DNA from: Bacteroidota bacterium
Lineage (GTDB): Bacteria > Bacteroidota > Bacteroidia > AKYH767-A > JABDAW01
Length of the DNA stretch: 64,000 nt
Reading direction: 5' to 3'
Assembly (NCBI GenBank): GCA_013288905.1
Contig: JABDAW010000002.1
Location: 3,265-67,264 of the forward strand
Each line of letters begins with the position of its first letter. The stretch's first letter is position 1. The notes beneath the pieces are model-generated. The model was not told the DNA's origin and did not search any database. It saw only the letters and a list, made by a program, of their open reading frames with translations. Both the position numbers and the translations under genes were made by a program. Below are positions 14,933 to 63,427 of this stretch, piece after piece.

Positions 14933-15165
14933 ATCCTCCAACTTTTCGTTGCATCCATCTGACTTTTCGTTGCTTTTATCCGACAGTTGGTTGTTATTCT
15001 CCAACTGTTGGTTGTTATTCTCCAACAGATGGTTCTATCACTCCAACTTTTCGTTGCATTCGTCCAACGGATGGTTCTATCTCTCCAACTTTTCGTTGCA
15101 TTCGTCCAACAGATGGTTCTATCCATCCACTTTTTCGTTACATATCTCCAACAAATGGATGCAGC
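14933..15165. repeat. Tandem array with a 21-bp period (~11 units, ctccaacttttcgttgcattcg / tccaacagatggttctatct alternating)
   Basis: Direct reading. The ORFs 14899-15238 on both strands are repeat artefacts. Confidence 0.8.
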
Positions 15166-15204
15166 CCATTTTTTCTTACGTTTTGTTGTATTTTTTATGA
15201 AGTA

Positions 15205-15285
15205 CAATCCTGAAAGGTTTTTCTCCTTTCTGGTTTAATAAAATAGCTGTTAATACCTGAAATGAGAAAAACTTTTCAGGATACA
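15205..15285. repeat. Terminal hairpin element (aatcctgaaagg...ctttcagg / cctgaaatgagaaaaacttttcaggat), copy 1
   Basis: A near-identical copy lies at 19065-19145. Both directly follow a 21-bp-period array. Confidence 0.6.
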
Positions 15286-15296
15286 TTCATAATTTT

Positions 15297-15946: not shown

Positions 15947-15961
15947 TAGATTGAATTAATA

Positions 15962-18150: not shown

Positions 18151-18233
18151 TTCAACACTAAGACACTAAGTCCACTAAGATTCACTAAGGTACGCTTAGT
18201 GAATCTTAGTGGACTTAGTGTCTTAGTGTTGAA
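18151..18233. repeat. Perfect 39-bp-arm palindrome built from 'cactaag' repeats
   Basis: ttcaacactaagacactaagtccactaagattcactaag gtacgc ttagtgaatcttagtggacttagtgtcttagtgttgaa. Confidence 0.85.
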
Positions 18234-18240
18234 AATATTT

Positions 18241-18404
18241 AATGACTGTCGGGTTATTTATACCAACAATATAATTTCAGTATAAAAACTGTGTAAACTT
18301 GGCATTCCGACGAAGGAGGAATCCTATTGAAATATGGATAGGATTCCTCCTTCGTCGGAATGACAAGACAAAATTTGGTTTATACAAACCGACAGTCATT
18401 AAAT
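18241..18404. mobile_element. MITE-like nested-palindrome element, copy 1 (outer aatgactgtcgg/ccgacagtcatt, inner cattccgacgaaggaggaatcctat)
   Basis: A second copy at 25929-26088 has the same architecture and ~85% identity. No coding capacity. Confidence 0.65.
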
Positions 18405-18479
18405 ATTTTATTGCTTCCAGATTGTTTTGCAAATATAAATGATATTACCAAGTGCTAAAAACCTTAGTATAGTTGAATC

Positions 18480-19075
18480 TTCAAATTGAAAGAAAAGAGA
18501 ATACGAAAGTATGAATTGTTCTTGAATACCACGTCTTTCGGGAGGAATGGCAGCTTGGGGTTTTGGAATTGTAATGCTTTGGATAAAAAAAATAAGCTAA
18601 ATCTGTCAAAAAACAATGTTCCTTTCACAAAAAACAATGTTCGGTTTGCAAATAACATTCAATACGACGCGAATAACAATGGTCGTTTTGTCAAAAAGAA
18701 TCCTCGAGACTTCAAAATGAATGGTTGGGAAATAAAAAACAGAGGAAAGAAAATGAAAAACATTCCTCTGTTTTTCATTTCCATTTGATACGACACAAAA
18801 AACAATGGTCATTTCTTGAATAAATGAACATTACTTTGCGTGAAAGGAGGAATGTTTTTTGCACAATGAGGATTACTTTTGGTGAATCGAACCTTACTTT
18901 TGATGAAAGGATAATTACTATGGATGAAAGGAACTTTGTTTCTTATGAACTGAACCTTATTATTTGTGTTTTGAACATTGTTGTTTGTGTTTTGATGTCT
19001 GCTATTTATGAAATGAACATGGTTGTTTGTGTTTTGATGTCTATTAATTATGTAATGAGATGCGGAATCCTGAAA
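18480..19075. repeat. Degenerate repeat tract: loose 'caaaaaacaatgttc' repeats, then a decayed ~21-bp-period array at 18840-19075
   Basis: Units ending ..ttttg / ..tttg recur every 20-23 bp. The ORFs at 18486-18788 and 18824-19120 are likely artefacts. Confidence 0.5.
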
Positions 19076-19145
19076 GGCTTTTCTCTTTTCAGGTTTAATA
19101 AAATAGTTATCAAAAATTGAAAGGAGAAAAACTTTTCAGGATGGG
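19065..19145. repeat. Terminal hairpin element, copy 2 (aatcctgaaaggcttttctcttttcagg...gaaaggagaaaaacttttcaggat)
   Basis: Near-identical to 15205-15285. Confidence 0.6.
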
Positions 19146-19307
19146 ATGCTATTAAACTTCCAGCCATTTCTTAAGATTAATAATAGCCACAAATCTTTGG
19201 AGTAAACTAAGAATTAAAAAATCAAGATTCATTCCACATGATTTCAAACCTTTTCCTTTTATGACATTGCCTTTTTTGGGGCAATGCAATAAAAGGAGTA
19301 TCAAATC

Positions 19308-19378
19308 AATTAGGAATTACGAATTAGGAATTAGGAAAAGCGGACATCTTATTTCGTAATTCCTAATTCATAATTCCT
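19308..19378. repeat. Palindrome built from 'aggaatta' repeats
   Basis: aggaattacgaattaggaattagg ... cgtaattcctaattcataattcct. Confidence 0.7.
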
Positions 19379-19429
19379 GATTGATTAAACTTTCCTTATT
19401 TTTTCGTAATTTAGCAGCCAGATAAATTA

Positions 19430-20932: not shown

Positions 20933-20940
20933 ATTCAGGG

Positions 20941-21126
20941 ATAAGGATATAGAGGTATAATGGAATAGAGGTATAGTGTATAAAATTATGTCGAATATAT
21001 TGATAACAATGATGACTAAAGTATGAAAGTGGTATTAAATATAATAAAGTTCAATGTTTGGAATTTAAAAGCAATTCTCAAATATTCCTTTATACCATTA
21101 TACCTTTATACCTCTTTATAATTTAT
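20941..21126. repeat. Imperfect inverted repeats built from 'aggtata' units flanking a ~100-bp AT-rich spacer
   Basis: ggatatagaggtataatggaatagaggtatag ... ctttataccattatacctttatacctctttat. Confidence 0.4.
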
Positions 21127-22186
21127 GAAGATTGCAATAGTTATTCTAAACTGGAATGGCAGGAAATTGCTGGAACAGTTCCTGCCGAAGGTTGTCGAAT
21201 ATAGCAAAGACATTGCTGAAGTAGTGATTGCTGATAATGATTCTAATGATGATTCTTTGGAATTCCTCAGAATAAATTATCCTGAAATAAGATTGATTAT
21301 TAATCATGAAAATGGTGGATTTGCAAAGGGGTATAATGATGCTTTGAAGTATGTGGAAGCGGATTATTATATCCTTTTAAATTCTGATGTAGAAGTAACT
21401 CCTGATTGGATAAAACCGATTATTTCTTTAATGGAGAATGATAAAAGTATTGCTGCTTGCCAACCGAAAATGTTATCTTTTAAGAACAAAGAAAAGTTTG
21501 AATATGCCGGTGCCGCAGGAGGTTTCATTGATCATTGGGGTTATCCTTTTTGCCAGGGAAGGATCTTTGGGAATCTTGAAACAGATCATGGGCAATATAA
21601 TGAAGCTTGTGAAGTCTTTTGGTCAACTGGTGCGTGTATGTTTGTTCGTTCTGAAGTCTTTCATCGGCTGAATGGTTTTGATGAAGAGTTTTTTGCGCAC
21701 ATGGAAGAAATAGATTTATGTTGGAGGATTCGAAATGCAGGATATAAAGTTCTTTATTGTCCGCAGTCCGTGGTTTATCATGTAGGAGGCGGAACTCTTC
21801 CTAAGAATAATCCAAGAAAAACTTATCTTAATTTCAGGAATAATCTTTTGATGATTTATAAGAATGCACCAAAGAAAGATCTATGGAAAATATGCTTTCT
21901 TCGTTTCGTTTTAGATGGAGTTGCTGGTGCTAAGTTTCTTTTTGAAGGTAATTGGAAAGATTGTATTGCGGTAATAAAGGCTCATTTTTATTTCTATAAA
22001 AACTATTCCAAGATCCGTAATAAAAGAAAAGCTACCATTAAGTCTTCCCTTGACAACAGTGATAAATTTATCTATCATGGAAGTATTGTTCTGCAATATT
22101 ATCTGAAGGGAAAGAGAACTTTTACTTCTCTTAATTGGAAAAGGAAATCAGTGAATAGTGAACAGGGGGCAGTGAATAGTGAATAG
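21125..22186 (+). CDS. Family 2 glycosyltransferase
   Basis: N-terminal GT-A signature (IVILNWNGRKLL...ADNDSNDDS...LLNSDVEV). The C-terminal ~12 codons run into a palindromic repeat arm, so the annotated 3' end is doubtful. Confidence 0.75.
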   Translation: MKIAIVILNWNGRKLLEQFLPKVVEYSKDIAEVVIADNDSNDDSLEFLRINYPEIRLIINHENGGFAKGYNDALKYVEADYYILLNSDVEVTPDWIKPIISLMENDKSIAACQPKMLSFKNKEKFEYAGAAGGFIDHWGYPFCQGRIFGNLETDHGQYNEACEVFWSTGACMFVRSEVFHRLNGFDEEFFAHMEEIDLCWRIRNAGYKVLYCPQSVVYHVGGGTLPKNNPRKTYLNFRNNLLMIYKNAPKKDLWKICFLRFVLDGVAGAKFLFEGNWKDCIAVIKAHFYFYKNYSKIRNKRKATIKSSLDNSDKFIYHGSIVLQYYLKGKRTFTSLNWKRKSVNSEQGAVNSE

Positions 22187-22368
22187 TGAACAGTGAATAG
22201 TGAACAGCGTGAAATGAAACTTTTTTTTACATCGAATCTCTTTAATGTTCTTCTTCTTCTGCACTGTTCACTATTCACTGTTCACTATTCACTATTCACT
22301 GTTCACTATTCACTATTCACTGTTCACTATTCACTGCCCCCTGTTCACTATTCACTGTCTCAAAATTA
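22150..22368. repeat. Large composite palindrome of 'gtgaatagtgaaca' repeats straddling the GT2 stop and the M23 peptidase start
   Basis: Left arm 22150-22208, ~55-nt loop, right arm 22263-22368 with extra repeat units. Confidence 0.8.
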
Positions 22369-25804: not shown

Positions 25805-25928
25805 TTGTTTTTATGACCGGATGCAAAACTAAAAAACTATGAAGTAACATCAAAGGCTCCGAATGAGTTCTAAAAACTGAAAAATAATTAGGAATATTTA
25901 ATAAGGAATAACGGATCATCATTATTTA

Positions 25929-26088
25929 AAATGACTGTCGGTTTGTATATACCTCAAATTGTTTTAAAATATAAAAACTGTGAATGCTTGTCATTCGACG
26001 AAGGAGGAATCCTATCCATATTTCAATAGGATTCCTCCTTCGTAGGAATGACAAGCCGCAACTTGGTTTATATAACCCGACAGTCATT
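25929..26088. mobile_element. MITE-like nested-palindrome element, copy 2
   Basis: Same outer (aatgactgtcgg..ccgacagtcatt) and inner (gtcattcgacgaaggaggaatcctat...ataggattcctccttcgtaggaatgac) inverted repeats as 18241-18404. Confidence 0.65.
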
Positions 26089-26435
26089 TTATTTAATGAT
26101 GCAATTGGATATATGCCCTTTCGGCTCCTGTCCCGTTGTATCGTCATTCCATAAGGTTATTTTTTTCATGTCGTAAAAATTGGCAAATAAAGTATTCACA
26201 AATCTTGATGCCTTAATAAAATTTATCATCTTATAATTCATTCATCATTAAAAGGTATTGAAATTTTCAGGTGAATCAAAATCTCTTTTCAGATGGGCTT
26301 GGAATTTCAAGGTTGCATGATACGGATGAATTATACCATTGCGCATTTTCTTAATGGTGTGAATGATAGTGGTATTGCTCTTGTTGAATTCTATGATAAG
26401 ACAAAAAGCATTGGGAATGGCATTACATAATTTCC

Positions 26436-26830
26436 TGATGCCATAAATAACGTTGGGGATGACATCCCTTTTTTTCCTTATGCCATAGAAAACGTTGGGG
26501 ATGACATCCCTTTTTTTCCTTATGCCATAAATAACGTTGGGGATGACATCCTTTTTTTTCCTGATGCCATAAAAAACGTCGGGGATGACATTCCTTTTTT
26601 TCCGGATGCCATAAAAAACGCTGGGGATGGCATCCGGAAAAAATCGGAATGCCATCATGGCTTCGGGGATGGCATTCGGAAAAAACCAAAATGCCATCAT
26701 GGCTCTGTGGATGGCTTTCGGAAAGTACCGAAATGCCATCATGGCTCTGTGGATGGCATCCGGAAAAAACCGGAACGCTATCCTGACGTTTTAGATGGCA
26801 TTCGGAAAATAAATCATAGCCATGATGGCA
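26436..26830. repeat. Tandem array, 42-bp unit made of two 21-bp half-units, ~9-10 copies decaying toward the 3' end
   Basis: atgccataaataacgttgggg / atgacatccctttttttcctt repeated. The ORFs 26248-26742 and 26423-26689 are repeat artefacts. Confidence 0.85.
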
Positions 26831-26887
26831 GGTCTAAGCTATAATTTGATTAGACTTCCTCGATAAATAGATGGAGAACAGTTAATA

Positions 26888-26980
26888 GGAACGCAGATGA
26901 CGTGGATTAATATGAAAAGATATGATTTTTTCCTTGATGAAATCATATCTTTTCATATTAATCCGCGTCATCTGCGTTCC
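26888..26980. repeat. Near-perfect ~40-bp-arm palindrome
   Basis: ggaacgcagatgacgtggattaatatgaaaagatatgattt ... aaatcatatcttttcatattaatccgcgtcatctgcgttcc (1 mismatch). Confidence 0.85.
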
Positions 26981-27079
26981 CATAGCATATCAAAATCTCA
27001 ATTCCCGAATAAGTCTATCCTTAAAACCTTCCATGTCCTTACTTTAATGTAATTTTGCATCATACAATAAGATTAAAAA

Positions 27080-27544
27080 ATGATAGAAGAATTAAAATCA
27101 ATCCGTGCTGCCTGTGATAAAATGGAGCGTGAGGATGAGAGAGAAAAAATGCAATTCCGCGAAGCAGATTTTGGCAGATTTGATTTGCCGAAGCATGTTG
27201 GCGATATTGTGGATTATCTGCAACCGCTTTTATTGCCCAATGAAGCGGCAATTTATTGGTATCTTTTCAGAAAGAGCATCGTCAAAAATATGGACAAGAA
27301 CATACGGTTTTATGCAAAAGATTTGTGTAAGGATTTTGAAGTCATCAGTTCCGGTTCGGGGCGAGCAGAATTTATTGGTATCAAGGCTGCAATCAAAGCC
27401 GTAGATGGGCTGGAAGCAAAAGGAGTGATAGAAAGAATCTTAAAAACAGCGACCAAAGATGGTTTTTATTTTAGCATTAAAATTCCATCCGAAATCCCGA
27501 TGTGCATTGACCGCAAGAAAGTTATGGATGCACTGAAATTATAA
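27080..27544 (+). CDS. Hypothetical protein (154 aa)
   Basis: Clean ORF with no recognisable motif. Confidence 0.4.
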   Translation: MIEELKSIRAACDKMEREDEREKMQFREADFGRFDLPKHVGDIVDYLQPLLLPNEAAIYWYLFRKSIVKNMDKNIRFYAKDLCKDFEVISSGSGRAEFIGIKAAIKAVDGLEAKGVIERILKTATKDGFYFSIKIPSEIPMCIDRKKVMDALKL

Positions 27545-27597
27545 ATGAATTTAAATCCTTTTCAATACCAGCATCACCAGAGAGAAGTTCATAAAGG

Positions 27598-27696
27598 AGT
27601 TATGAAATATGAGTTATGAGTTATGAAGTATGAGTTATGAGTTTGTGCAAACTCATAACTCATAACTCATACTTCATAACTCATAACTCATAACTA
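27598..27696. repeat. Palindromic 'gagttatga' repeat element, copy 3 (longest; center gtttgtgcaaac)
   Basis: Same family as 4098-4163 and 4296-4350. Confidence 0.8.
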
Positions 27697-31295: not shown

Positions 31296-31610
31296 TTATT
31301 TTTCCTTTTTATCGTCCGTCAGTCTCTTCTTGTTATTCGCTTTTACTTTGTCCAAAAAGCCTTTAGAGGGCTTCCATGTCGGCACATATCTTTCCGGCAC
31401 AATCACAGGTACACCGGCAATGATATTCCTCCCTATTTTACCTTTTCTTTTCTTCACCACGAAGCTACCGAAGCCACGAAGGTAGCAGTTTTCGCCCTTC
31501 ATCATGGTGTTCTTGATAATACTGATAGTAGCTTCTAAAATTTCGGTTACTACAACACGCTCAACACCAGTCTTTTTTGACAATTCAATGATGAGTTTTT
31601 GTTTAGTCAT
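31296..31610 (-). CDS. HU family DNA-binding protein
   Basis: HU/IHF fold (..GFGSFVVKKRKGKIGRNIIAGVPVIVPE..). Likely start MTKQKL at 31610. A TAnnTTTG box lies on the minus strand at 31670-31677. Confidence 0.75.
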   Translation of the reverse strand: MTKQKLIIELSKKTGVERVVVTEILEATISIIKNTMMKGENCYLRGFGSFVVKKRKGKIGRNIIAGVPVIVPERYVPTWKPSKGFLDKVKANNKKRLTDDKKEK

Positions 31611-31796
31611 GTTAGTCTTGTACATACTTTTAATTTTTAAATTTATTAATCTGATTATTTTTAGGGCTGCAAAGATATATTTTTTTTTTGAAACCAAAAA
31701 TGGATTAATAAAAAATGTCCCGTAGTTAGGATTGTCTCCTTAAGATGTTTTGCCGCTATTTTTGTAATAGTCTGCTAAAGAAACGATCTACTTCTC

Positions 31797-37214: not shown

Positions 37215-37579
37215 ATTGATATTTTCTGAAATTTAGATAGTAGTATTTTAAACGCCTTTATGTTTTTATAATTCTTCTTTCCTTATATCTTTTTATAATT
37301 TTTGGAGTTGCAATATTATGCAATTAATTTCTAATGACCAAATAATATGTTTTAAAAAAAATATTTTATTGGCACTCATCATAGCTGAAAGCCATACATC
37401 AAGAGGGAATTGGTAACGTTCATATAGAACCGGATATGATGTATTATGCGTATTTTTAGACATAAATTCATTATAGTATTGGTCAGTATTGCGGCAATAC
37501 TGGTCAGTATTGGAGACATTTTCAGGTAAGTATTTTGGAAAAATTCCTTCCAAAGTTTGTAAAAACTCCTTCCATACTA

Positions 37580-37815
37580 ACCATTATGGAGGATATCATG
37601 ACCATTATGCGAGCCATAATGGTCATGATGCGAGGCATAATGGTTATGATAGGAGACATAATGGTTATGATGCGAGGCATAATGGTCATGATGGGAGCCA
37701 TAATGGTTATGATGGGAGATATAATGGTCATGATGCGAGCCATAATGGTCATGATGGGAGATATAATGGTTATGATGCGAGGCATAATGGTCATGATATC
37801 CTCCATAATGGTCAG
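37580..37815. repeat. 21-bp-period tandem array (cataatggtYatgatgSgagg, ~11 units)
   Basis: Direct reading. The overlapping ORFs 37489-37881, 37522-38052 and 37535-38161 are repeat artefacts. Confidence 0.85.
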
Positions 37816-37833
37816 TATTTTGACTGTCATCTT

Positions 37834-47074: not shown

Positions 47075-47387
47075 CTTATCTTATTTTCGGCTGCAAAATT
47101 AAGCATTTTCGGGGAAAGGGAAATTAATCGAATATTGTTCTTCTTCCTTATTTTTTGCGACAATATATATAAGAATCCTGATTCACTTTCCCAAAATATG
47201 AAACCATTCTTCTATATCAAATGTCAGTACGCGTATCTTTTCATTCATCGGGTGCGAAATTAGGGAAAAATAGGTTAGGGCAAAGGTATCGAGGGAATTT
47301 TCTGGTCGTGGAGTAAGAATGATTGGATGATAAATGTGAAATTATGGAGTAACCATTGGATTCTAAAGGAGTGACCATTTCATTTTC

Positions 47388-47647
47388 GGAGGTGCGAGGA
47401 CGATTTTCGCGAGAGAAAGTGCGATTTTCTGGGGAACGAGAACGATTTTCTTGGATGTGAGTACGATTTTCGGACATGCGAGATGGGATTTTCATGAGTG
47501 CGAGTACGATTTTCCGAGGTGCGAGTACGATTTTCTTTGATGCGAGTATGATAATCCAAGGTACGAGGACGATTTTCGGAGGTGCGAGGTGGGATTTTCT
47601 TGGGTGCGAGTATGGTTTTCTTGAATGTGAGAACGATTTTCTTGGGC
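47388..47647. repeat. 21-bp-period tandem array (gaggtgcgagtacgattttcg-type, ~12 units)
   Basis: Direct reading. The ORFs 47241-47660 and 47476-47736 are artefacts. Confidence 0.85.
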
Positions 47648-47796
47648 GTTTTTTCAGCATTTGCGCTATAACGATGAAAAATAGGGGGTATAGTGGTATT
47701 TTGGTTTTGAAGGGAATTGATGAATTTAGGGGTTAAATTGGGAAATCAATGGAAATCGATGTTTTTTACTCCTATCGTAGAATTCTTTCATAATTC

Positions 47797-53023: not shown

Positions 53024-55213
53024 CTATAAATCATCAATTGCTGTAGAGGCGTCTCTATCGGCTTCAACATCATGGATTAGCGTACTCATATCTTTCCCAA
53101 AAGAATAAATTTCTCCAAGAGTTGCCGACTTCTTGAAGTGATGCTTAATACCTAATCGTTGTGCCAACAGATTTGCATCTAATTCATTCAATGCCTTAAA
53201 TTCTTTTCTGGCAATCAATCGACCAGGGCGAAGCAGCGCGCTATCCAATTTCTTTAAATCAACATTAAACGTACAGATTATTTGAAGATTCAACATATCA
53301 TTCAAGAGACCGTCTGTCATATTCAAAAGGTTCGTGACACCTTGAATTCTAATTCCTTCCTGACGTTTCGCAAGCAAGGGTTCGGCATCTTCTATTAATA
53401 AAACGCAGAAATATCCTTGTCGAGAATAATGCTCAACTTGTGTGGAAACAAAAGTCATGAAGCCAGGCTCAACAAGATGATCAACCATATTAGGAGGCAT
53501 ATAGATAACGATCTTTTTATTATTCGCCATACTTCTTAATAAGTGTCTGATATAATATGTTTTCCCTGTTCCAGGCTCTCCATGAAATAAAACCAAACCT
53601 TTGCTCTCATTTAGAAATCGTTCCATCAATTCATTATGAAACTTCGCAAAGCCATTGCCATAGTTCAAGTCCAGATCCTTTATTTCAAAGTTATCTTCGA
53701 CAGCATGAGATTTTAGATAGAAGTTTTGACTGTATTGAATCATATAAATCTTTGGCTTGTCTGGAATCCTTTCCAAAGAACACATTGACATTATTCTTTC
53801 TAACTGTCGTTCAAAAACCTTATCTCGCTTACCAGAACCATCACTTGGACGCAACAAAACTATATTGCTGGTATAAACACCTGAATATTCATAACGAATG
53901 ATTTGCCGGATATAATCCGGCACATCATATTCTCCACTATCTTCATGTGAAATCTGGGTAGCTTGCAATACATACCCGACATTAGGAAATCCCAAAGTAT
54001 ATTTCGTTAATCGCTCTCCTTCAAAATCATATTTCTCACTACAAGTATGAAGTTCCTTTGCGCCCATCGTCTCTTTTAATTCTCTCATCAAAGCTATAGC
54101 CTCAATTCGATCCCCCGAAAAGGTAATAATGGATGGGGATTGATTGTTCTTAAGAACATAATATCGTGGTGCAGAGAATATATCTGGAGTAGGGCTTGCC
54201 TCTTGCAACCACCGTGCTAATGCTGGTTCCAATTCTCCAGCCGCTAACTCTATTGCAGGAGCAACACCTGTCTTCAAATCTTCTGTTGAATTGTTATTTA
54301 CTGATGTTTCAATCTCCTCAACAATACTCAAATACTCTTTAAATGGTGGTTGTTCTCCATAATAAACGATTTCTCGAACCCATACATTTATCATTTCGTT
54401 TTTATAGTATTTCCATTTCTCAATCCAATTACCAAAAGCATCGCGCTCCCAGGCATTCTCTTCAAATTCTTTACTTCGTCTTGCAACTTCTTTCTGTATT
54501 ATCCTATCTCCATTTTCATCATATTCATCATAACACATATATCTGTTATCCAGACTGCCATCTTCCTTATAAACGGTTATTTCCACAGGATGTCCTTTGT
54601 GATTATTTTTATAAACGCTTCTCCGTTTAATCATCCCTATACCATCTTCCATTAAGTCTTCAATCTTAAAACCATTGTCATCATAGATAATTGTAGACTT
54701 ACCATAAACCACACCGCCCATATATGAAATATGACCTAAGCTATCCCCTTTCTCATTCCGCAAGTATTCAGTGCTATTGGTTTCTATTCCATCTTTATTA
54801 AGTGAACGAGTCACTGATAATTGATCTTTATCATCATAAATATATTCATGAGTACTTGTGATGTTTCCTTCCTTATCATGGCTTATCATCGCAGTATATT
54901 TTCCATTTTCATTATAAACTACTTTGAGAATCGTTTCTTCTTTTGTAAAAATATCCCGCCCAGTCATTTTACCAAGTTCATTATAGAAAGTAATATTATT
55001 TGTTTCCACACCAATCAATTCTTCCCTTTTTCCACGAATAATCTTATCTCCTTGATTATAGGCTTTATGATAAGTTTCTTTAACTGATTTAACGGCTCCC
55101 TTCATGTCATTTAATTCAACATCAGTAGGAGTATTAGGAACCACCTTCATTTCCACTTCCTTATCAGCCGCTTTAATTTCTTTTTTCTTTGCCATAATTA
55201 ATATATATTTCAA
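53024..55213 (-). CDS. Paralog B of a tandem pair: N-terminal YD/MORN-like beta-repeat region fused to a C-terminal classical AAA+ ATPase
   Basis: Walker A GEPGTGKT, Walker B LLIEDAEPL, sensor-1 TFN, Arg finger LLRPGRL. N-terminal repeats of the type ..YIYDDKDQL.., ..IIYDDNGFKIE.., ..YDEYDENGDRI... Likely true start MAKKKEIKAADKEVE. Confidence 0.6.
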   Translation of the reverse strand: MKYILIMAKKKEIKAADKEVEMKVVPNTPTDVELNDMKGAVKSVKETYHKAYNQGDKIIRGKREELIGVETNNITFYNELGKMTGRDIFTKEETILKVVYNENGKYTAMISHDKEGNITSTHEYIYDDKDQLSVTRSLNKDGIETNSTEYLRNEKGDSLGHISYMGGVVYGKSTIIYDDNGFKIEDLMEDGIGMIKRRSVYKNNHKGHPVEITVYKEDGSLDNRYMCYDEYDENGDRIIQKEVARRSKEFEENAWERDAFGNWIEKWKYYKNEMINVWVREIVYYGEQPPFKEYLSIVEEIETSVNNNSTEDLKTGVAPAIELAAGELEPALARWLQEASPTPDIFSAPRYYVLKNNQSPSIITFSGDRIEAIALMRELKETMGAKELHTCSEKYDFEGERLTKYTLGFPNVGYVLQATQISHEDSGEYDVPDYIRQIIRYEYSGVYTSNIVLLRPSDGSGKRDKVFERQLERIMSMCSLERIPDKPKIYMIQYSQNFYLKSHAVEDNFEIKDLDLNYGNGFAKFHNELMERFLNESKGLVLFHGEPGTGKTYYIRHLLRSMANNKKIVIYMPPNMVDHLVEPGFMTFVSTQVEHYSRQGYFCVLLIEDAEPLLAKRQEGIRIQGVTNLLNMTDGLLNDMLNLQIICTFNVDLKKLDSALLRPGRLIARKEFKALNELDANLLAQRLGIKHHFKKSATLGEIYSFGKDMSTLIHDVEADRDASTAIDDL

Positions 55214-57336
55214 TCCACATCATGAATCAGAGTACTCTTGTTTGTTGCCTTCGCATAGATTTCAGCAAGGGTGGCTGCTCCGGTGAAATGATGTTTGATC
55301 CCCAAGCGTGATGCCAACAGATTCGCCTCAAATTCAGGTAGTGCTTTGAACTCCTTACGCGCAAGTAATCTCCCTGGTCGCAGCAAGGCTTTATCGAGCT
55401 TGCTTACTTTGACATTGAATGTGCAGATGATTTGAAGATTCAGCATATCGTTAAGCAATCCATCAGTCATATTAAGAAGATTGGAAACGCCTTGTATCCT
55501 TGTATCCGATGAACGCGAAGCCAGCAGTGGCTCTGCATCTTCTATCAGCAATACACAGAAATTATCATCTTGAGAAAACTGTTGTACTTCTCGAGAGATG
55601 AAAGACATGAATTGTGGTTCGACCATATAATCAACCATGTTAGGAGGCATATAGATAACTATCTTATTCTTGTTCGCCATAGAGCGAAGGAGATGACGGA
55701 TATAGAATGTCTTCCCCGTGCCCGGCTCACCATGAAACAACACCAAGCCTTTATTTTCATTCTCAAAACGACCCATCAATTCATCATGGAAATCTTCAAA
55801 GCCATGTCCATAATTCAAGCTCAAGTCCTTGATTTCAAAATCAGCGTTCACATCATGCCCCTCCAAAGAATAGCTGCCTGCGCCATTTACTTGCACCATA
55901 TATATCTGTGGCTTCTCGGGTTTTTCATAGAGTTTGCACATATCTATCAAACTCTTTATTTCTTCTTCAAAAACCATATCCCTTTTACAGGAATCATTGC
56001 TTGGATGATACATAATCAACTGGCTGGTATGAATATAATTGTAATCATACTCCGGCGCCTGTCTAAGAAAATCGGGAATGTAGAAAAGTTCCGCATCACG
56101 TTGCTGAATCTGAAACGCACTCAACAAATATTTCCCGTCAAGAAAGCTCAAAGTATAACGAATCATCTTAGTATTATGAGAATTCTCGCTATCCATAGCA
56201 TAAGAGTTAATGATTCGACCGCCCAGCTTATCAATCAAATGCATCTTTAAACCAAAAGCATCGCAATCATGACCGGCGTATGAATATTGTGATGGAAACT
56301 CCTTATTCTTCAAAACATAATACCGCAACACAGGGAACTGCTCTTGCACACTTCCTTCAGTCATCCACTTGTTCTGCTCCTCATTCATAAAAGTTGGCTG
56401 ATATTCCTTTTCTTTTGCTTCATCAACTTTCGCTTGCGTGGCAAAAATGTCAGTTGGTATTTCCAAGGTTTTCTTTTTTGATGCATCATCATAATAAGTG
56501 ATGTCACGAATGATAATATTCATCGCCACTGTCTTGAAATAGATGGTCTTCTTCACCCAATTACCGTGGCTATCCAGTTCCTTTACATCCTTAAATCTCC
56601 ATTGCAGAAAAGTATTCCCATCAGGTTCGGCAGAGACCTTCTTGCCAAGATGATTAATCTTGTATTTCGGGATTTCAATCTCTGTAATTTTACCATTGGC
56701 ATCATACTCTTTCTTTTCAAGGATATTTGATTCGTCATCATACAACCAAACCCACCGATGCTGCAAAACTTCTGCTTCATTATAATTGTAATGATCATAT
56801 AGATGCGTGTTGTCCTCATTATAGGTCATGAAGGTTTGCCCCGTCATCTTACCCTCTGCATTATAGGTTTTAGAACCAATGCGCTTACCTTGCTTGTCAT
56901 TGGTAAAATACGCTCTATTCAAGACTCTCCCGTCTGCATATATTAATGAGCTTTCTATCTCGAAGCCATTCTTATCGAAGATATGATCACTGATAAAATT
57001 CTCTGTACCATCCTTATTATAATGGATGCTTTTTGAATGGCTACCTTTTTCATTAAACAGTAGCGTATGATTCTCGCCAGTAATCTTAAAACCATAAAAT
57101 TCCCTTCTAATTCCGTTCTCATCAAAGTTCGACAACCCATTATGGTCATCATCAAGATAATCCATGATAGCACCCGGAACCACCTCACCATTCACCTTAG
57201 TTGCCTTATGAATTGTTAGCTTCATCTGCTTCACTTTGCCTGTTAATTCAAGTCTTTCCATAACGGTCTTCTCCTTCTTAACCTCTACTTTTTCAACTTC
57301 CTTAGTAGCTGCTTTACTTTCTTTTTTCTTTGCCAT
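55210..57336 (-). CDS. Paralog A: N-terminal YD/MORN-like repeat region plus C-terminal AAA+ ATPase
   Basis: Same AAA motifs (GEPGTGKTFYIRHLLRSMANK..LLIEDAEPLL..ICTFNV..LLRPGRLLARKEFKAL). Starts MAKKKESKAATKEVE. Its stop overlaps the start of paralog B by 4 nt. Confidence 0.6.
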   Translation of the reverse strand: MAKKKESKAATKEVEKVEVKKEKTVMERLELTGKVKQMKLTIHKATKVNGEVVPGAIMDYLDDDHNGLSNFDENGIRREFYGFKITGENHTLLFNEKGSHSKSIHYNKDGTENFISDHIFDKNGFEIESSLIYADGRVLNRAYFTNDKQGKRIGSKTYNAEGKMTGQTFMTYNEDNTHLYDHYNYNEAEVLQHRWVWLYDDESNILEKKEYDANGKITEIEIPKYKINHLGKKVSAEPDGNTFLQWRFKDVKELDSHGNWVKKTIYFKTVAMNIIIRDITYYDDASKKKTLEIPTDIFATQAKVDEAKEKEYQPTFMNEEQNKWMTEGSVQEQFPVLRYYVLKNKEFPSQYSYAGHDCDAFGLKMHLIDKLGGRIINSYAMDSENSHNTKMIRYTLSFLDGKYLLSAFQIQQRDAELFYIPDFLRQAPEYDYNYIHTSQLIMYHPSNDSCKRDMVFEEEIKSLIDMCKLYEKPEKPQIYMVQVNGAGSYSLEGHDVNADFEIKDLSLNYGHGFEDFHDELMGRFENENKGLVLFHGEPGTGKTFYIRHLLRSMANKNKIVIYMPPNMVDYMVEPQFMSFISREVQQFSQDDNFCVLLIEDAEPLLASRSSDTRIQGVSNLLNMTDGLLNDMLNLQIICTFNVKVSKLDKALLRPGRLLARKEFKALPEFEANLLASRLGIKHHFTGAATLAEIYAKATNKSTLIHDVD

Positions 57337-59321: not shown

Positions 59322-62300
59322 TTAATTCGGACTGTGAATACTATGATTGCTTACTAATGTAATGATCTTTTTATACAGAATGTTTTCATCAACAGGCTTT
59401 GCCACGTAGTCATTCATGCCATCCTCCTTACATTTGTCAAAATCCATGTTGGTAACGTCTGCTGTCAATGCAATGATGGGCACTTGCGATTTTGGCGAAG
59501 GCATCTCATTACGGATGATTTTTGTGGCTTCGTATCCATCCATTTCAGGCATGTGAAGATCCATCAACACCAGATCAAAATGATTCTCCTTAATCTTCTC
59601 TATCGCTATCTTTCCATTCTCAGCAACATCTTGCTGGCAGCCTAAGTCATGCAATAATTTCTTTATCAATAGCTGGTTGAATTCATTATCTTCGACCACC
59701 AGGATATTAATATTCTTCATCTCGAACTCCAAGTATTCTTCCTCCTTGATCTTCTCTTCCATGTCAGTAATATCACCCTTTTTGAAGGTCAGAACAAAGC
59801 TAAATGTGGAGCCTTCATCCAACTTACTTTCCAGCTTAATAGTACCGCCCTGCGCCTCCACCAATTGTTTCACAATGGCAAGCCCCAAACCGGTTCCGCC
59901 ATAAGTTCTCGATGTAGAACTTGATGCCTGCTGGAACTTCTCAAAGATAGTCTCCAGCTTATCTTCCGGTATTCCGATGCCGGTATCCTTCACATAGAAT
60001 TCTATCGAAACATAGTCATTTACTTCCTTCAATAAGTGAATGCCGACCGTTATCTTTCCTTTGGAAGTAAACTTAACGGCGTTGCTGATAAGGTTTAAAA
60101 TAATCTGATGAAGCCTCATCGGATCGCCGATTACTATTTCCGGAATTCTGGAATCAAAAACTTTTATCAGCTTCAAATGCTTCTCCTCAATCTTATTCTC
60201 ATACAACAGCATCATTGTGGAAATGGAAGTCTCCAAATCAAATGGAATGCGCTCGAATGTCATCTTCCCGGATTCAACTTTTGCGAGGTCAAGAATGTCA
60301 TCAATCAACACCAGCAATGTATCTCCTGATACTTTTATCGCATCAAGATATTGCTTCTGTTTCTCGGTCATCCTGGTTTTCAGAAGCACTTTCGTGAAGC
60401 CAATAATTGCATTCATCGGGGTCCTGATCTCATGACTCATATTCGACAAGAACTGTTGCTTGGCTCTTGCAGCTTCTTCAGCTCTGTGCAATTCAGTTAT
60501 CGTTTCGATACGTTCTGTAATATCCTGGTTAGTGCCAGCCAGCTTGATCACTTCGCCTTTGTCATCCAGGTAAACTTCGCCAAGCGTATTCAATACCTTC
60601 ACCTCATTATTCCAGGTCTTGATGCGGTAATCGAAGTTAAATGATTTCTTTTCTTTAATGGCATTTGCCATAGTATTCCGAATAATATCGCGGTCCACTT
60701 CATAATTAAACTGCGCCAAATGATCACTGGTCAATGGCACTTCGCCAGGCTCGAAACCATATATCTTATACAACTGATCAGACCATGTTATTGCTCCTGT
60801 CTTGACATCAACTTCCCAGTTTCCCATCTTCGACAACTCCTGCGCTTCCTTCAATTGCTTGATAGATGCGTTGATCTTTTCTTCTGCAAACTTCCGCTCG
60901 GTGACATCCTGAACAGAACAGGAAATCTTTTCCCCATCACCCTTATCATCCGTAGCGACTTCGCCTACTACATAAAGATATTTCAATGCTCCATACCTGT
61001 CATTAATACGAATATCAAAATTGAAAGATGCTTTTTCAGCAACAGCTTTCTCATAGATTTCATTTGACATCTTTCTATCTTCAGGATGAATATAATCGTT
61101 TAGCTTTCCATAGAATAAATGAATCTCATGAGGCTCGAAACCATAGATGCGAAGAAGCTCGTCGGAGTAGCTGGGTTTCTTTGTTTTCAAATCCATTTCC
61201 CAACTGCCGATATGCGCCAACTCCTGCGAATCGGATAATTGCTTAACGGTTTCACTTAGTTTTTCCTCTGCCAATTTCCTTCTGGTAATATCCTGTGCCG
61301 CACCGGTAATCTTCAAAGGATTGCCCTTGGCATCCGTCATTACTTCGCACATCACATTCAGGATTTTCAATTCGCCTGCCATATTTGTGATGCGTGTTTC
61401 GTATTGGAATGGCTGCTTATCATCTATCGCATGAACGATATTCATCAGCCTTAATTCCGAATCAATATTCAAGCGATTGAGCTCTTTGAATTGAATCTTC
61501 GTGCCGACTTCCATTCCATAAATCTTATACAATTCGTCAGAGAAAATAATCTCCCTCGTCTTGAAATCCATCTCGAAGTTCCCTATATGAGCGCGTTCCT
61601 GTGCCTGCTGCAATTGATGCAACGTATGATTGAGCTTCTCTTCATTCGCTTTCCGTTGTGTAATATCCTGCGATGAAGCAAACAGGTGAGTTGGATTGCC
61701 ATCCTTATCGCAGATGATTTCGCACATCACATTCATGTCTCGTATCTGTCCTTTCTTGTTGATTATTCGCGTCTCATATTCAAATGGTTCCTTCCTCGCA
61801 ATAGCCTTCTTCAGCAGCTCTCTTCTCCCTTCATCATCGGTATTCATGCTGGCTACTTCATCATAATTAACTACCGAATCTGGCTCCAGCCCAAAGATGC
61901 GATACATCTCATCAGAGAATTTAAGTTCCTTAGTAGCAAGATTTAATTCCGAAGAACCGATATGCGCCCTCGCCTGTGCCAGCTCCAATTGTTTATTAGT
62001 CTTTTGAATCACTTCCTCATTCTTTTTCCTGTCGGTAATATCCTGAACAGTAGCAAACAGGTGTGTCGCATTCCCATTCTCATCGGTAATCACCTCGAAT
62101 ATACTATAATTATATCGCGGAATTCCTTTGGCATTAATTATCAGGGTTTCATATTCAAAAGGTTGCTTATCGGTGAGGAGTTTCTTCATCCTTTCTTCTC
62201 TGCCCTCTTGATTGGTATTCATCATGGCGAGCGTTTCATAATTCAATGGAGAGCCAATCTCCAGCCCGAAGATGCGATACAATTCATCAGAGAATTTCAA

Positions 62301-63230
62301 CTCCTTAGTCTTCAGATCAAATTCCAAAGTGCCGATATGCGCACGCTCCTGCGCTGTCTGAAGATCTTTTAATGTCTTATTTATCCTGTCTTCCGTGGCT
62401 TTCCGTTCGGTAACATCTTTTAATGCGCCATATCTCTTCACCGCGATTCCATTTTCATCAGCCAAAATATTCCCCCACATTTCAAGCACCTTATGTTCGC
62501 CTTTCTCACTGATGATGCGGTATTCGCTATGATAAGGAATCTGTTTTTCGGTAGCATTATTAATCACTTCTTCGAGATGTTTCCTGTCATCAGGATGCAC
62601 ATATTTCGTGTATTCACTCTTAGGCATTGGCGAATCCGGCTCCAAGCCATATATCTTATAAAGCTCATCAGACCAGAAGACTTCGCGGGTTATCAAATTC
62701 GTTTCAAAATTGCCGATATGAGCCAGACGTTGCGCTTCATTCAACTGATTCAGGGTCGTACTCAATTTATCTTCCACCTTCCTCTGGATATTATCGAAGG
62801 TCTGGAACGAAATCTTTCGCATCTCGGTATAAAGCAGATTAATGTCATTAACAATGCCCAATGCCTCCTCCATATCAGTCGCAAATTGAGGAATAAAATG
62901 TTGCATCGCCCTCACCTGGGCAGCATAAACCAGCACCAGATCCATGACCTTGATGTCGCGGTTAGAATACCCTCCCTCCAGCTTATCGGATTCCCAAAGT
63001 AATGAACGTTTCCTGGAATCTTCCAACAGGGTCCCATTTATTATAGGGTCGAATAAATTGGAAATCGTCGTTTTCATACTCATCTGAACCAATTCCTCAT
63101 CGGTATATTTAGGAATTAATTTCATCAACGGCACATCCATCGTTTTGATGACCTCAATCTGGTAGCGGACGAATTCCTCCAGATGTCCTTCCTTCAAAAA
63201 TGCAACGTAATCCTGTAAAGTTCTCTTCAT
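59322..63230 (-). CDS. Hybrid sensor histidine kinase with about nine tandem PAS/PAC domains, HisKA, HATPase_c and a C-terminal receiver domain
   Basis: Repeated PAS cores (..AHIG.(F|W)E.D..T...(F|Y)SDE(L|M)Y(R|K)I(F|Y)G..). H-box LSNMSHEIRTPMNAIIGF. G-boxes (..DTGIGI.., GGTGLGLAI). Receiver ..LVLMDLHMPEMDGYEAT... Confidence 0.85.
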   Translation of the reverse strand: MKRTLQDYVAFLKEGHLEEFVRYQIEVIKTMDVPLMKLIPKYTDEELVQMSMKTTISNLFDPIINGTLLEDSRKRSLLWESDKLEGGYSNRDIKVMDLVLVYAAQVRAMQHFIPQFATDMEEALGIVNDINLLYTEMRKISFQTFDNIQRKVEDKLSTTLNQLNEAQRLAHIGNFETNLITREVFWSDELYKIYGLEPDSPMPKSEYTKYVHPDDRKHLEEVINNATEKQIPYHSEYRIISEKGEHKVLEMWGNILADENGIAVKRYGALKDVTERKATEDRINKTLKDLQTAQERAHIGTLEFDLKTKELKFSDELYRIFGLEIGSPLNYETLAMMNTNQEGREERMKKLLTDKQPFEYETLIINAKGIPRYNYSIFEVITDENGNATHLFATVQDITDRKKNEEVIQKTNKQLELAQARAHIGSSELNLATKELKFSDEMYRIFGLEPDSVVNYDEVASMNTDDEGRRELLKKAIARKEPFEYETRIINKKGQIRDMNVMCEIICDKDGNPTHLFASSQDITQRKANEEKLNHTLHQLQQAQERAHIGNFEMDFKTREIIFSDELYKIYGMEVGTKIQFKELNRLNIDSELRLMNIVHAIDDKQPFQYETRITNMAGELKILNVMCEVMTDAKGNPLKITGAAQDITRRKLAEEKLSETVKQLSDSQELAHIGSWEMDLKTKKPSYSDELLRIYGFEPHEIHLFYGKLNDYIHPEDRKMSNEIYEKAVAEKASFNFDIRINDRYGALKYLYVVGEVATDDKGDGEKISCSVQDVTERKFAEEKINASIKQLKEAQELSKMGNWEVDVKTGAITWSDQLYKIYGFEPGEVPLTSDHLAQFNYEVDRDIIRNTMANAIKEKKSFNFDYRIKTWNNEVKVLNTLGEVYLDDKGEVIKLAGTNQDITERIETITELHRAEEAARAKQQFLSNMSHEIRTPMNAIIGFTKVLLKTRMTEKQKQYLDAIKVSGDTLLVLIDDILDLAKVESGKMTFERIPFDLETSISTMMLLYENKIEEKHLKLIKVFDSRIPEIVIGDPMRLHQIILNLISNAVKFTSKGKITVGIHLLKEVNDYVSIEFYVKDTGIGIPEDKLETIFEKFQQASSSTSRTYGGTGLGLAIVKQLVEAQGGTIKLESKLDEGSTFSFVLTFKKGDITDMEEKIKEEEYLEFEMKNINILVVEDNEFNQLLIKKLLHDLGCQQDVAENGKIAIEKIKENHFDLVLMDLHMPEMDGYEATKIIRNEMPSPKSQVPIIALTADVTNMDFDKCKEDGMNDYVAKPVDENILYKKIITLVSNHSIHSPN

Positions 63231-63320
63231 TTCATACTATTAATAATGTAGATTGATATTATAAACATATAAATTTTGAAAAATCATTGTTGTAAAAGTG
63301 ATTTGCTGGCGAATACAAAT

Positions 63321-63427
63321 CCTTACTATGTACATAGTAGCGACTAACATGTACATAGTAGCGGCTAACATGTACATAGTAGCGACTAGTATGTGCATGT
63401 TAGCGGCTAACATGTATATAGTAGTCA
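63321..63427. repeat. 21-bp-period tandem array (ctaacatgtacatagtagcgR x5)
   Basis: Direct reading. ~90 bp upstream of the hybrid kinase start. The ORFs 63240-63584 and 63298-63612 are artefacts. Confidence 0.8.

Follow-up and report, generated by a model that had tools for sequence, protein, structure and literature searches.

The window, by which we mean the whole stretch of 64,000 nucleotides that was analysed, contains seven tandem arrays (A1 to A7) with a common period of 21 bp, and these arrays are non-coding minisatellites specific to one Bacteroidota clade. We tentatively favour, at somewhat less than an even chance, the reading that they would be helically phased protein-binding arrays growing and shrinking as VNTRs; one of them, A3, looks like a conserved binding-site array beside the gene of a winged-helix protein. 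An earlier note on this DNA had listed seven such arrays, all of which were recovered by Tandem Repeats Finder (TRF) at or close to the places assigned to them (no strand is attached to any of them):

14921 to 15165, A1: approximately 11 units of 21 bp, of three types, every one ending in TCCAA; higher-order period 42 bp (TRF: 14962-15158, period 42, score 220).
18602 to 19063, A2: approximately 22 degenerate 21-bp units in a single register (TRF: 18607-19058, in several pieces of period 21 or 42, 0% indels).
26417 to 26830, A3: 42-bp units, five L-type and five R-type (TRF: 26431-26809, period 42, scores 333 and 231).
37574 to 37818, A4: approximately 11 units of 21 bp (CCATAATGGTYATGATGSGAG); higher-order period 63 bp (TRF: 37603-37797, period 21/63, scores 264 and 313, 0% indels).
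37830 to 38160, A5: approximately 15 units of 21 bp, each made of CGAACGATAAGGTG and a variable 7-mer; higher-order period 63 bp (TRF: 37862-38138, period 21/63, score 317).
47382 to 47654, A6: approximately 13 degenerate units, in which GATTTTC and GCGAG blocks are conserved; two units are 22 bp long (TRF: 47391-47646, period 21, 67% matches, score 165).
63321 to 63427, A7: approximately 5 units of 21 bp (ATGTACATAGTAGCGRCTAAC) (TRF: 63328-63424, period 21/42, scores 138 and 152).

The "decayed" array placed at 18840-19075 is indeed an array, but a larger one: A2 consists of a forward half (18602-18810) mirroring an inverted half (18812-19063), the arms being 71-73% complementary. Likewise, the period had been called strict, which stands as a general rule but not for one 17-bp unit (37862-38138) and for the two 22-bp units of A6. 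Almost all strong tandem arrays found by TRF in the window have a period of 21, 42 or 63 bp, i.e., integer multiples of 10.5, and neither TRF of the window nor the duplication scan of clade DNA returned arrays of period 10/11 or 31/32, or of further multiples of 3 or 7 (14, 18, 24 and 28, for example). A lag-coverage scan of the window gave 749 bp at lag 21, 1310 bp at lag 42, 335 bp at lag 63 and 710 bp at lag 84, and at most 110 bp at any lag not divisible by 7. The excess of the 21-bp period is present both in the window and in approximately 100 kb of clade DNA (the window, L006, L086 and L092) and is stronger than had been claimed: in a duplication scan at 85% identity, this clade DNA gave 19 loci of period 21, 8 of period 42 and none of periods 18-20 and 22-27. 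The same kind of scan over 2.0 Mb of other Bacteroidota gave 6 loci of period 21, 7 of period 22 and 8 of period 18, and the enrichment in the clade is approximately 60-fold. No such array occurs in approximately 150 kb of relatives at 72% prfA identity; the period rule is restricted to one Bacteroidota clade, an uncultured lineage. Since the arrays recur at 99.7-100% identity in independent assemblies (JGI, ENA and Logan), they are genomic and not assembly artefacts. The arrays are, as had been noted, unrelated in sequence: the longest k-mers common to any two of them are at chance level, and a self-BLAST of the window gave no cross-matches between arrays. Our literature search found no published description of a 21-bp array family.

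Comparison of near-identical strains revealed array length differences of whole units (63, 84 and 84 bp). Exactly 63 bp are missing from A5 in strain L004, and strain L005 has a full 21 bp at the place of the 17-bp unit of A5 in the window. The C/T alternation in cataatggtYatgatg, to which attention had been drawn, is real and part of a 63-bp higher-order unit. Arrays may gain and lose whole units by replication slippage or by unequal exchange, and, in the reading that we favour, two full turns of the helix, or an exact multiple of them, set the length of the unit: 21 bp, with higher-order forms of 42 and 63 bp. Twenty-one bp is also 7 codons, and the arrays could be imagined to code for proteins with heptad (7-aa) or 14-aa repeats: open frames 83-208 aa long run through every array, the one at 37489-37881 being rich in His, and metagenome pipelines have called genes on these frames. 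We regard this as hardly credible, in agreement with the non-coding status proposed earlier. Several frames are open simultaneously and on both strands, none of the ORFs extends beyond its array, and a 4-bp inter-strain indel and two 1-bp register shifts, all frame-breaking, are tolerated. Unit variation has no three-base periodicity (p = 0.04 in 2 of 16 arrays, the chance expectation), the array ORFs are without Pfam match, and the other multiples of three (18, 24 and 27) are absent.

The case for protein binding centres on A3, downstream of which lie two features:

27050 to 27057, forward strand: Bacteroidota-type -7 promoter box, TAATTTTG, from a pattern scan; a consensus match, not a mapped start site.
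27080 to 27544, forward strand: winged-helix gene encoding a 154-aa predicted DNA-binding protein.

The box stands 23 nt ahead of the ATG of the winged-helix gene, which puts A3 upstream of the promoter, and an equivalent box is kept in relatives. This gene is the sole one whose link with an array is conserved across species: in 5/5 species the orthologous gene is preceded by a period-42 array, the other flank being variable. Among the orthologous arrays compared (L157, L160, L163 and L164-166), unit homology is recognisable in three species (z = 14.8, 7.5 and 6.6), internal indels of 2-4 bp compensate each other so that the unit length stays 42 bp, and the distal degenerate units of A3-type arrays hold the 42-bp register, free of indels, over 11-13 units. 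A3 itself includes 17 ATGNCAT palindromes at a spacing of 20-22 bp, and its R-type units form a 26-bp inverted repeat (TGGCATTCGG-N6-CCGAAATGCCA) whose arms are conserved, with diverged loop and linker and a compensatory CGG/CCG to AGG/CCT change. With its position, period and, in part, sequence conserved, A3 shows the comparative signature of a putative phased binding-site array. It is tempting to propose that the 154-aa protein binds this array upstream of its own gene, and A3 might then serve as an operator or iteron-like array, either for autoregulation or for building a larger nucleoprotein complex. The protein has no Pfam family match, its distant homologues possess a C-terminal HNH nuclease domain, and its AF2 model, of only moderate confidence (pLDDT 66), weakens the proposal. 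HU had been put forward as an adjacent candidate binder; the HU gene (31296-31697) adjoins no array and the link is unfounded.

For the other six arrays, which may also be bound by some protein, the phased geometry suggested for the whole family is the entire argument, and neither a candidate binding protein nor cross-species conservation was found for them. The equation of 21 bp with two helical turns is supported: for any 21-mer of the genome the summed twist is 717-720 degrees under two twist models. Each unit would present a short site, often dyad-symmetric, on one face of the DNA, and dimeric DNA-binding proteins would line up next to each other ahead of promoters. Dyad symmetry within units is enriched (z = 3.8), though not universal; a stem of at least 5 was found in 9 of 28 units where 4.0 were expected. 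The units of A7 are each semi-palindromic (palindrome 77% complementary), A1 is flanked by a 15-nt inverted repeat (14909-14923 and 15144-15158), and A4 is bounded by inverted unit copies of 37 nt (37574-37610 and 37782-37818, 97%). Against binding, a wedge model predicts unremarkable intrinsic curvature in 3/7 arrays (A4, A5 and A7). As the unit sequences differ between arrays, one sequence-specific protein cannot explain the whole family, which would take many proteins or one shape-reading protein.

A1 and A2 occupy divergent spacers of 708 and 1322 bp, respectively, A5 ends approximately 110 bp ahead of the nuoD -7 box, A6 lies 280 bp upstream of the prfA promoter box (-7 box at 47094-47101), and A7 is located between genes for a response regulator and a hybrid histidine kinase. 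Intergenic regions had been described as abnormally long, which is true of the array-holding spacers but not of the window generally, with an intergenic share of 17.9% and a median spacer of 136 bp. These long spacers also contain MITE-like and hairpin repeats, and a 77-nt strongly folding hairpin element directly follows two arrays. Transcribed arrays might act as consecutive-hairpin RNA or single-stranded DNA, for instance as sponges for proteins, as substrates of processing or as structured leaders. The 77-nt element would fit, as would the 5-6 bp stems of many units, the near-perfect hairpins among 42-bp units (A3 R-type; L025) and the A3 R-type stem, whose compensatory change is accompanied by several G-T pairs of one polarity. 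We nevertheless consider such a role improbable, since the promoter boxes of the flanking genes stand between array and gene, which places the arrays upstream of predicted starts rather than in leaders (pattern scan), and the arrays themselves have no -7 box ahead of them. There is no Rfam family match, approximately two thirds of the units are without significant stem, the G-T polarity (4 vs 1) is not significant, and the same covariation is expected from palindromic operators. We are not aware of anything at the RNA level that would call for a 21-nt ruler.

The main rival takes the arrays for satellite DNA, neutral or selfish, born from lineage-specific duplication in 21-bp steps and expanded by slippage, most of them being functionless; we hold this quite possible, although on balance doubtful. 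The steps could come from a staggered-cut or integrase-like enzyme, or from slippage for which a chromatin protein covering 21 bp provides the template, and the array beside the winged-helix gene would be a later co-option. Arbitrary, unrelated unit sequences and the restriction to one clade agree with it, as does turnover, most arrays being replaced fast between species: an upstream array is present at prfA in 2/4 species and at nuoD in 1/4, the equivalent of A6 being found in L006 and missing from L086 and L092. Gene order within the clade is scrambled to an extreme degree, with arrays at junctions, and the A4 and A5 pair upstream of nuoD sits at a recent rearrangement junction absent from L171 (96% nucleotide identity), where nuoC is directly upstream of nuoD and similarity ends at 38347. 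This junction and the patchy presence at prfA both count against the binding arrays. So does the occupation of every spacer type: L006 and L086 also house arrays in convergent spacers, and the tie to promoters and upstream regions asserted earlier therefore does not hold. Two-copy 21-bp duplications coexist with the long arrays (duplication scan), the MITE-like and hairpin repeats share the long spacers, and two pairs of heptamer arrays were observed:

22149 to 22356, no strand: inverted heptamer array pair (AGTGAAT, CACTATT), best period 21 bp, not 7.
27597 to 27695, no strand: inverted heptamer array pair (GAGTTAT, AACTCAT) between convergent genes; in the left arm the higher-order period is 21 bp.

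By TRF, matches at period 21 reach 93% for 22262-22356 (82% at period 7) and 96% for 27597-27695 (80% at period 7); a dispersed copy related to the latter pair lies at 4100-4345. The best period at 22149-22356 implies amplification in three-heptamer steps, and since heptamer hairpin arrays in terminator-like positions likewise expand 21 bp at a time, a general process is indicated more than regulation of particular loci. On the other hand, to our knowledge no bacterial mechanism produces 21-bp duplications, the window has no transposase, integrase or reverse transcriptase, and satellite DNA leaves unexplained the cross-species sequence conservation and indel-free register of A3 as well as the dyad-symmetry enrichment.

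Among known systems, an assignment to CRISPR, REP/BIME, MITE-internal repeats or chromosomally integrated plasmid or phage iteron origins appears very unlikely. The arrays are intergenic, some palindromic units alternate in orientation in a BIME-like manner, MITE-like elements share the spacers, and one array adjoins a winged-helix gene as iterons adjoin rep. CRISPRs can be set aside, as had been argued, by the lack of spacers between units and of cas genes. Like REP/BIME elements of enterobacteria and pseudomonads, which are bound by nucleoid proteins, the arrays include intergenic palindromic tandem units of partly alternating orientation; REPs, however, are one genome-wide family mobilised by RAYT, whereas the units here are locus-unique and the window has no RAYT. 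Iterons (R6K, P1, pPS10 and RK2) with their Rep genes differ in that the context of A3 is chromosomal and housekeeping, that A3 has approximately 10 units of 42 bp instead of 3-7 of 22 bp, and that the 154-aa protein has a single winged-helix domain instead of a pair, with no Rep homology and no match in plasmid or phage collections; moreover, the same genome has many unrelated arrays lacking such a gene. Centromere-like arrays (parC/ParR, tubC/TubR and omega-repressor heptads) lie upstream of the binder's gene and are bound cooperatively, in a filament-like manner, on one DNA face. They resemble A3 in their many phased short repeats upstream of a winged-helix gene and in mixing direct and inverted units, but no partition NTPase gene adjoins the array in 5/5 species and the A3 locus is not plasmid-borne.

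Cyanobacterial STRR or TAACTGA-type heptamers are tandem repeats in the intergenic DNA of particular lineages, with a fixed unit length and unknown function; they have also been reported from a few Bacteroidetes (MacGregor 2015, PMC4679880). The heptamer arrays of the window are similar, e.g., AACTCAT, one mismatch from TAACTGA, with their 21-bp higher-order period; the STRR-type units are 7 bp long, with one heptamer recurring at many loci, whereas each 21-bp array has its own sequence and no internal 7-bp period (consensus units inspected). With the VNTRs and minisatellites used for MLVA typing, our arrays have in common head-to-tail units, higher-order repeats, concerted evolution and strain copy-number differences. 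They depart from them in holding a common period, since ordinary bacterial VNTRs, as far as we know, have none within one genome. We know of no 21-bp chromatin ruler in bacteria; still, a common period with unrelated sequences is what is seen in eukaryotic satellites with nucleosome-sized periods, and recalls a monomer length that follows a chromatin ruler.

All seven arrays that the earlier note had described as sharing a 21-bp period were recovered by Tandem Repeats Finder (TRF) with scores of 97-333, and besides short heptamer and octamer runs no further repeat in the whole 64 kb scored above 70. Each array is built of head-to-tail units, of a size within the 10-100 bp of VNTRs or minisatellites, and they are listed here with the one gene that will concern us most.

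A1, 14921-15165: array with neither inverted blocks nor palindromic units
A2, 18602-19063: forward block followed by an inverted block
A3, 26417-26830: forward block followed by an inverted block; 42-bp units of two kinds, L-type and R-type, five of each
27080-27544, forward strand: gene downstream of A3, encoding a 154-aa predicted winged-helix protein
A4, 37574-37818: array of palindromic units
A5, 37830-38160: array with neither inverted blocks nor palindromic units
A6, 47382-47654: array with neither inverted blocks nor palindromic units
A7, 63321-63427: array of palindromic units

The period, said to be strict, holds as a rule, the exceptions being one 17-bp unit in A5 and two 22-bp units in A6. 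A2, held to be a decayed array, is an array indeed; its extent had been misjudged, since about 22 units keep a single register over 18602-19063 through a forward and an inverted half. The HU gene, thought to adjoin the arrays, lies at 31296-31697 with no array beside it. A lag-coverage scan of the window gave 749 bp at lag 21, 1310 bp at lag 42, 335 bp at lag 63 and 710 bp at lag 84, and at most 110 bp at any lag not divisible by 7. Independent assemblies of the same strain (JGI, ENA and Logan) match the arrays at 99.7-100% identity, and the arrays are therefore present in the genome rather than being assembly artefacts. They are also mutually unrelated, as had been proposed: self-BLAST of the window gave no match between arrays and longest-common-substring sharing was at the level of chance, which disposes of two candidate shared motifs (CCATNATGG in A3 and A4; TGATGCGAG in A4 and A6).

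The periods seen are 21, 42 and 63 bp, all integer multiples of 10.5; periods of 10/11, 31/32 and other multiples of 3 or 7 were not found among the arrays. The summed twist of 21-mers from this genome is about 717-720 degrees whatever their sequence, so 21 bp amounts to two turns irrespective of sequence; selection for an exact 720-degree twist was rejected because array units and random 21-mers are alike in this respect. Since only 21, 42 and 63 bp occur, two readings fit, namely selection for helical phasing and duplication in steps of 21 bp. The observation made in the earlier note is confirmed, and its interpretation is partly supported.

This period is a property of a clade. Arrays of the same kind, with different unit sequences, were found in the following loci of relatives.

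L006 (prfA 94% identical in amino acids): seven arrays within 19 kb, every one of period 21/42
L086 (prfA 89%): two arrays, of period 21/63
L157 (winged-helix protein 71%): several arrays within 20 kb, every one of period 21/42
L160 (winged-helix protein 64%): three arrays, every one of period 21/42
L167 (nuoD 84%): a single 42-bp array downstream of nuoH

At 2380-2620 of L006, an eight-unit array has units of two further 21-bp types (TGTTACTCCCAACAAG... and TGTTGCGAG...) on its left and again on its right, all in one register, so a single 21-bp frame is common to different unit types. About 150 kb of the next-nearest relatives (prfA 72%; L007-L013, L017 and L087-L089) contained no such arrays. 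When duplications were scanned at 85% identity, 100 kb of clade DNA yielded 19 loci of period 21, eight of period 42 and none of periods 18-20 or 22-27, as against six loci of period 21, seven of period 22 and eight of period 18 in 2.0 Mb of other Bacteroidota loci. Two contigs of termite-gut Bacteroidales MAGs, a distant lineage, carry clean intergenic 21-bp and 42-bp arrays (L024, 278-486; L025, 6774-7031), which shows that such arrays exist outside the clade at low density. In L025 the 42-bp unit is an almost perfect hairpin, and another locus, L119, has arrays of 22 bp.

The window itself is ordinary chromosome of an uncultured Bacteroidota, of about 37% GC, encoding T9SS cargo proteins, gltX, purE, rpoD, prfA, HU and hybrid histidine kinases, together with two pairs of tandem paralogous genes (1590-2169 and 2454-3065, 67% nucleotide identity; 53064-53707 and 55214-55857, 70%, with adjacent ORFs of 729 and 708 aa). 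Intergenic DNA makes up 17.9% of it with a median spacer of 136 bp, and the seven arrays occupy six long spacers, four of the window's five divergent ones and two co-directional ones. Matches to the Bacteroidota-type -7 box consensus (TAnnTTTG) stand 20-30 nt ahead of the start codons of flanking genes, and boxes so close to the start codons would place the arrays upstream of predicted promoters and outside leaders.

Beyond the period, the arrays share very little. By wedge-model curvature A2, A3 and A6 fall within the bottom 3-5% of windows of the genome, and A4, A5 and A7 are unremarkable, so strong intrinsic curvature is not a common property. Nor is there a common flanking element: a 77-nt hairpin lies directly after A1 and A2 (15206-15282 and 19066-19142; copies 87% identical, RNA folding z = -8.6 and -6.8) and is missing from the other arrays and from the loci of relatives examined, a flank of A7 (63437-63470) resembling its left arm. 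Two spacers that hold arrays also contain a MITE-like element of about 170 bp (18232-18409 and 25917-26101; copies 80% identical) with terminal inverted repeats of 35-37 nt (AATGACTGTCGG core). Dyad symmetry within units is enriched (summed best stem 116 against 99.2 ± 4.4, z = 3.8). The enrichment is real overall; a hairpin in every unit was rejected, as stems of at least 5 were confined to about one third of the units (9 of 28). With no Rfam match in the window except tRNA, and with the predicted promoters placed as they are, we regard RNA hairpin arrays as improbable.

Could the arrays simply be coding repeats? Each has multiple open frames on both strands whose ends coincide with those of the array, and metagenome annotation pipelines have called "genes" of 45-191 aa on such frames (L003, L153, L157 and elsewhere; one is the 164-aa ORF at 26248-26742 on the reverse strand, another a 145-aa ORF in L157). 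Frame-breaking changes are tolerated, among them one indel of 4 bp that distinguishes strains and two shifts of register by 1 bp; among-unit variation had no three-base periodicity across 16 arrays, and no array ORF matches any Pfam family. Translation is not the ruler either, given that periods of 18, 24 and 27 would be expected under it and are absent. The multiple frames, the indels, the lack of phase bias and the lack of a Pfam match rule out coding repeats, to which we leave next to no probability, in agreement with the non-coding status first proposed; the gene calls on arrays are spurious proteins in public databases.

Membership of a known repeat class is hardly more credible, even though the period of 21/42 bp is that of iterons, direct repeats of about 17-22 bp or some two helical turns. 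The arrays are not CRISPRs, as had been argued, since units abut without spacers and the annotated genes of the window encode no cas-like domains. They are not REP/BIME elements, for the units do not recur elsewhere in the window, which also has no Y1 transposase. The STRR or heptamer class was rejected because TRF gives the seven arrays no 7-bp period, and hidden 7-bp substructure within the 21-bp units is absent from the TRF output and by eye, being confined to separate heptamer arrays. As to a partition centromere (parC/tubC), the gene 3' of the winged-helix gene varies between all species and is never an NTPase. A Rep-initiator homologue beside the arrays was likewise rejected: a candidate gene exists at only one of the seven, the 154-aa protein has no Pfam family and no PDB sequence match, and tblastn against plasmid and phage collections found no match to it, which also speaks against the winged-helix gene having come from a plasmid or phage.

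A3 is the one array that is conserved. In every species with upstream DNA (the window, L157-159, L160, L163 and L164-166), a long period-42 array lies directly 5' of the gene for the 154-aa protein, the orthologues of which are 64-76% identical, and a sixth locus known from protein calls has the tell-tale spurious opposite-strand ORF at the equivalent place. The neighbours of this locus are housekeeping genes that differ from species to species, the gene on the far side of A3 being different in each. L-type units of the window have homologues in L164 (z = 14.8) and L160 (z = 7.5), and R-type units in L164 (z = 6.6); in these alignments internal indels of 2-4 bp compensate one another so that the unit remains exactly 42 bp. 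The R-type unit contains an inverted repeat, TGGCATTCGG-N6-CCGAAATGCCA, whose arms are kept in L164 with a compensatory change from CGG/CCG to AGG/CCT while loop and linker have diverged. ATGNCAT occurs 17 times in A3 of the window at a spacing of 20-22 bp. In L163 and L164 the distal, degenerate units stay in the 42-bp register, free of indels, over 11-13 units, and the units of L157 and L163 are unrelated in sequence and nonetheless have a period of 42. Taken together, the conservation, the cancelling indels and the register are the best evidence that the period as such is constrained and that A3, at least, is under sequence-specific selection. A hairpin with 44-nt arms, 95% complementary, separates A3 from the promoter of the winged-helix gene (26885-26983); it is missing from the equivalent place in four related species.

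The AlphaFold model of the 154-aa protein (pLDDT 66, pTM 0.60) has a winged-helix topology in the order H1-b1-H2-H3-b2-b3, its structural likeness being to the generic fold only. A profile search of 1.84 billion representatives gave a family of 93 members, homologues including P0134, P0137, P0138, P0140, P0151, P0164 and P0174. Of ten longer members, seven have an HNH endonuclease domain at the C terminus, and one of these aligns with the window protein at 34% identity (E = 2e-26); the clade protein therefore resembles a member of an HNH nuclease family from which the nuclease is gone and the DNA-binding module is left. When the alignment is read by eye, the first residues of the predicted recognition helix vary between species with different arrays and resemble each other in the window and L164, which have homologous arrays. 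Co-evolution of protein and site would fit this pattern, drawn as it is from few sequences and a moderate model.

The comparative evidence for A3 supports selection for helical phasing, which we tentatively rank first: sites recurring on one face of the DNA would favour cooperative protein binding. Iterons, centromere arrays and operator arrays are precedents for such phasing.

Apart from A3, most arrays are not conserved from species to species. An array 5' of prfA is found in the window and L006 and not in L086 or L092, L086 having its arrays 3' of prfA in a convergent spacer. The nuoD gene belongs to a normal nuoABCDH operon in the relative at 84% amino acid identity and has no upstream array in that at 91%; neither the prfA nor the nuoD array thus proved to be conserved at orthologous positions among the relatives compared. 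In the L171 contig (96.2% nucleotide identity) nuoC lies directly upstream of nuoD and similarity to the window stops at 38347, within the first codons of nuoD, which places A4 and A5 at a very recent rearrangement junction. The nuoD-like gene of the window (38305-39420) is isolated, with its 5' end replaced and a new promoter, and the window has no nuoC; close relatives carry nuoC-nuoD or nuoABCDH. The locus records a very recent rearrangement within a respiratory-complex operon. Gene order in the clade is scrambled overall, prfA being the only gene common to L006 and the window.

Copy number varies between near-identical strains, and where the length difference is clean it amounts to whole higher-order units: -63 bp between the window and L004, and -84 and -84 bp between L157 and L158 (flanks 99.7-100% identical), with the limit that short-read assemblies may collapse repeats by whole units. 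The difference seen in L159 was discarded, being a 100-N scaffold gap.

The window also contains inverted pairs of 7-mer and 8-mer tandem repeats (3445-3503, 4100-4163, 4283-4345, 18151-18233, 19288-19402, 20937-21113, 22149-22356 and 27597-27695), mainly between co-directional or convergent genes, which would fold as long hairpins; that at 18151-18233 has 39-nt arms, 100% complementary. One of the heptamers, AACTCAT/TAACTCA, is one mismatch off the TAACTGA repeat described (PMC4679880) from Beggiatoaceae, from cyanobacteria and from a few Bacteroidetes. A 21-bp higher-order period is present in several of the arrays, and by TRF matches period 21 is better than period 7 (93% versus 82% and 96% versus 80%); the heptamer arrays too were therefore amplified in 21-bp steps.

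A lineage-specific duplication process in 21-bp steps followed by slippage ranks below helical phasing as a possibility that we also hold tentatively. It better accounts for how arbitrary the unit sequences are and how fast the arrays turn over, for their occurrence in convergent spacers and at rearrangement junctions, and for the 21-bp steps of the heptamer arrays; we know of no mechanism for it. The two readings are compatible with each other. It is tempting to go further and imagine, as an unlikely possibility, a system of "two-turn satellites" in which a chromatin or DNA-processing factor of the clade with a 21-bp step seeds and maintains hundreds of unrelated arrays along the chromosome as architectural or recombination-prone elements; the HNH-derived winged-helix family beside the conserved array might include a relative of this factor. 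If so, bacteria would have in these arrays their own version of satellite DNA whose phase is set by a chromatin ruler, and the unusually scrambled gene order of the clade could be connected with it.

To our knowledge, bacterial tandem repeats have so far been treated one locus at a time. A genome-wide rule would differ in imposing an exact two-turn period on dozens to perhaps hundreds of unrelated arrays in a single clade, and points to one physical ruler for all of them, whether it lies in the architecture by which DNA is bound or in the mechanism by which it is duplicated. A clade-wide family of 21-bp arrays in Bacteroidota is undescribed in the literature as far as our partial search reached, an absence of evidence only; the nearest published case concerns heptamer arrays, a few Bacteroidetes included (MacGregor 2015, PMC4679880). 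Should the arrays be junk, the clade would still show satellite-like DNA and rapid rearrangement persisting in a free-living bacterium, and would still expose a source of spurious gene calls, array ORFs having been annotated by several pipelines. The 42-bp array and its winged-helix protein, derived from an HNH-nuclease family, are directly testable, since protein, site and phasing rule are all given.

In comparison with known systems, the 21-bp arrays are not STRRs, and STRR-like heptamer arrays coexist with them in the window. By analogy, A3 and its neighbour gene would work like an iteron/Rep module, from which they differ in having no Rep homology and no apparent replicon, or like a centromere and its binding protein, from which they differ in having no NTPase. 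The arrays behave as VNTRs and belong to that class; among tandem-repeat or operator arrays they are set apart by a period rule that would hold across the genome.
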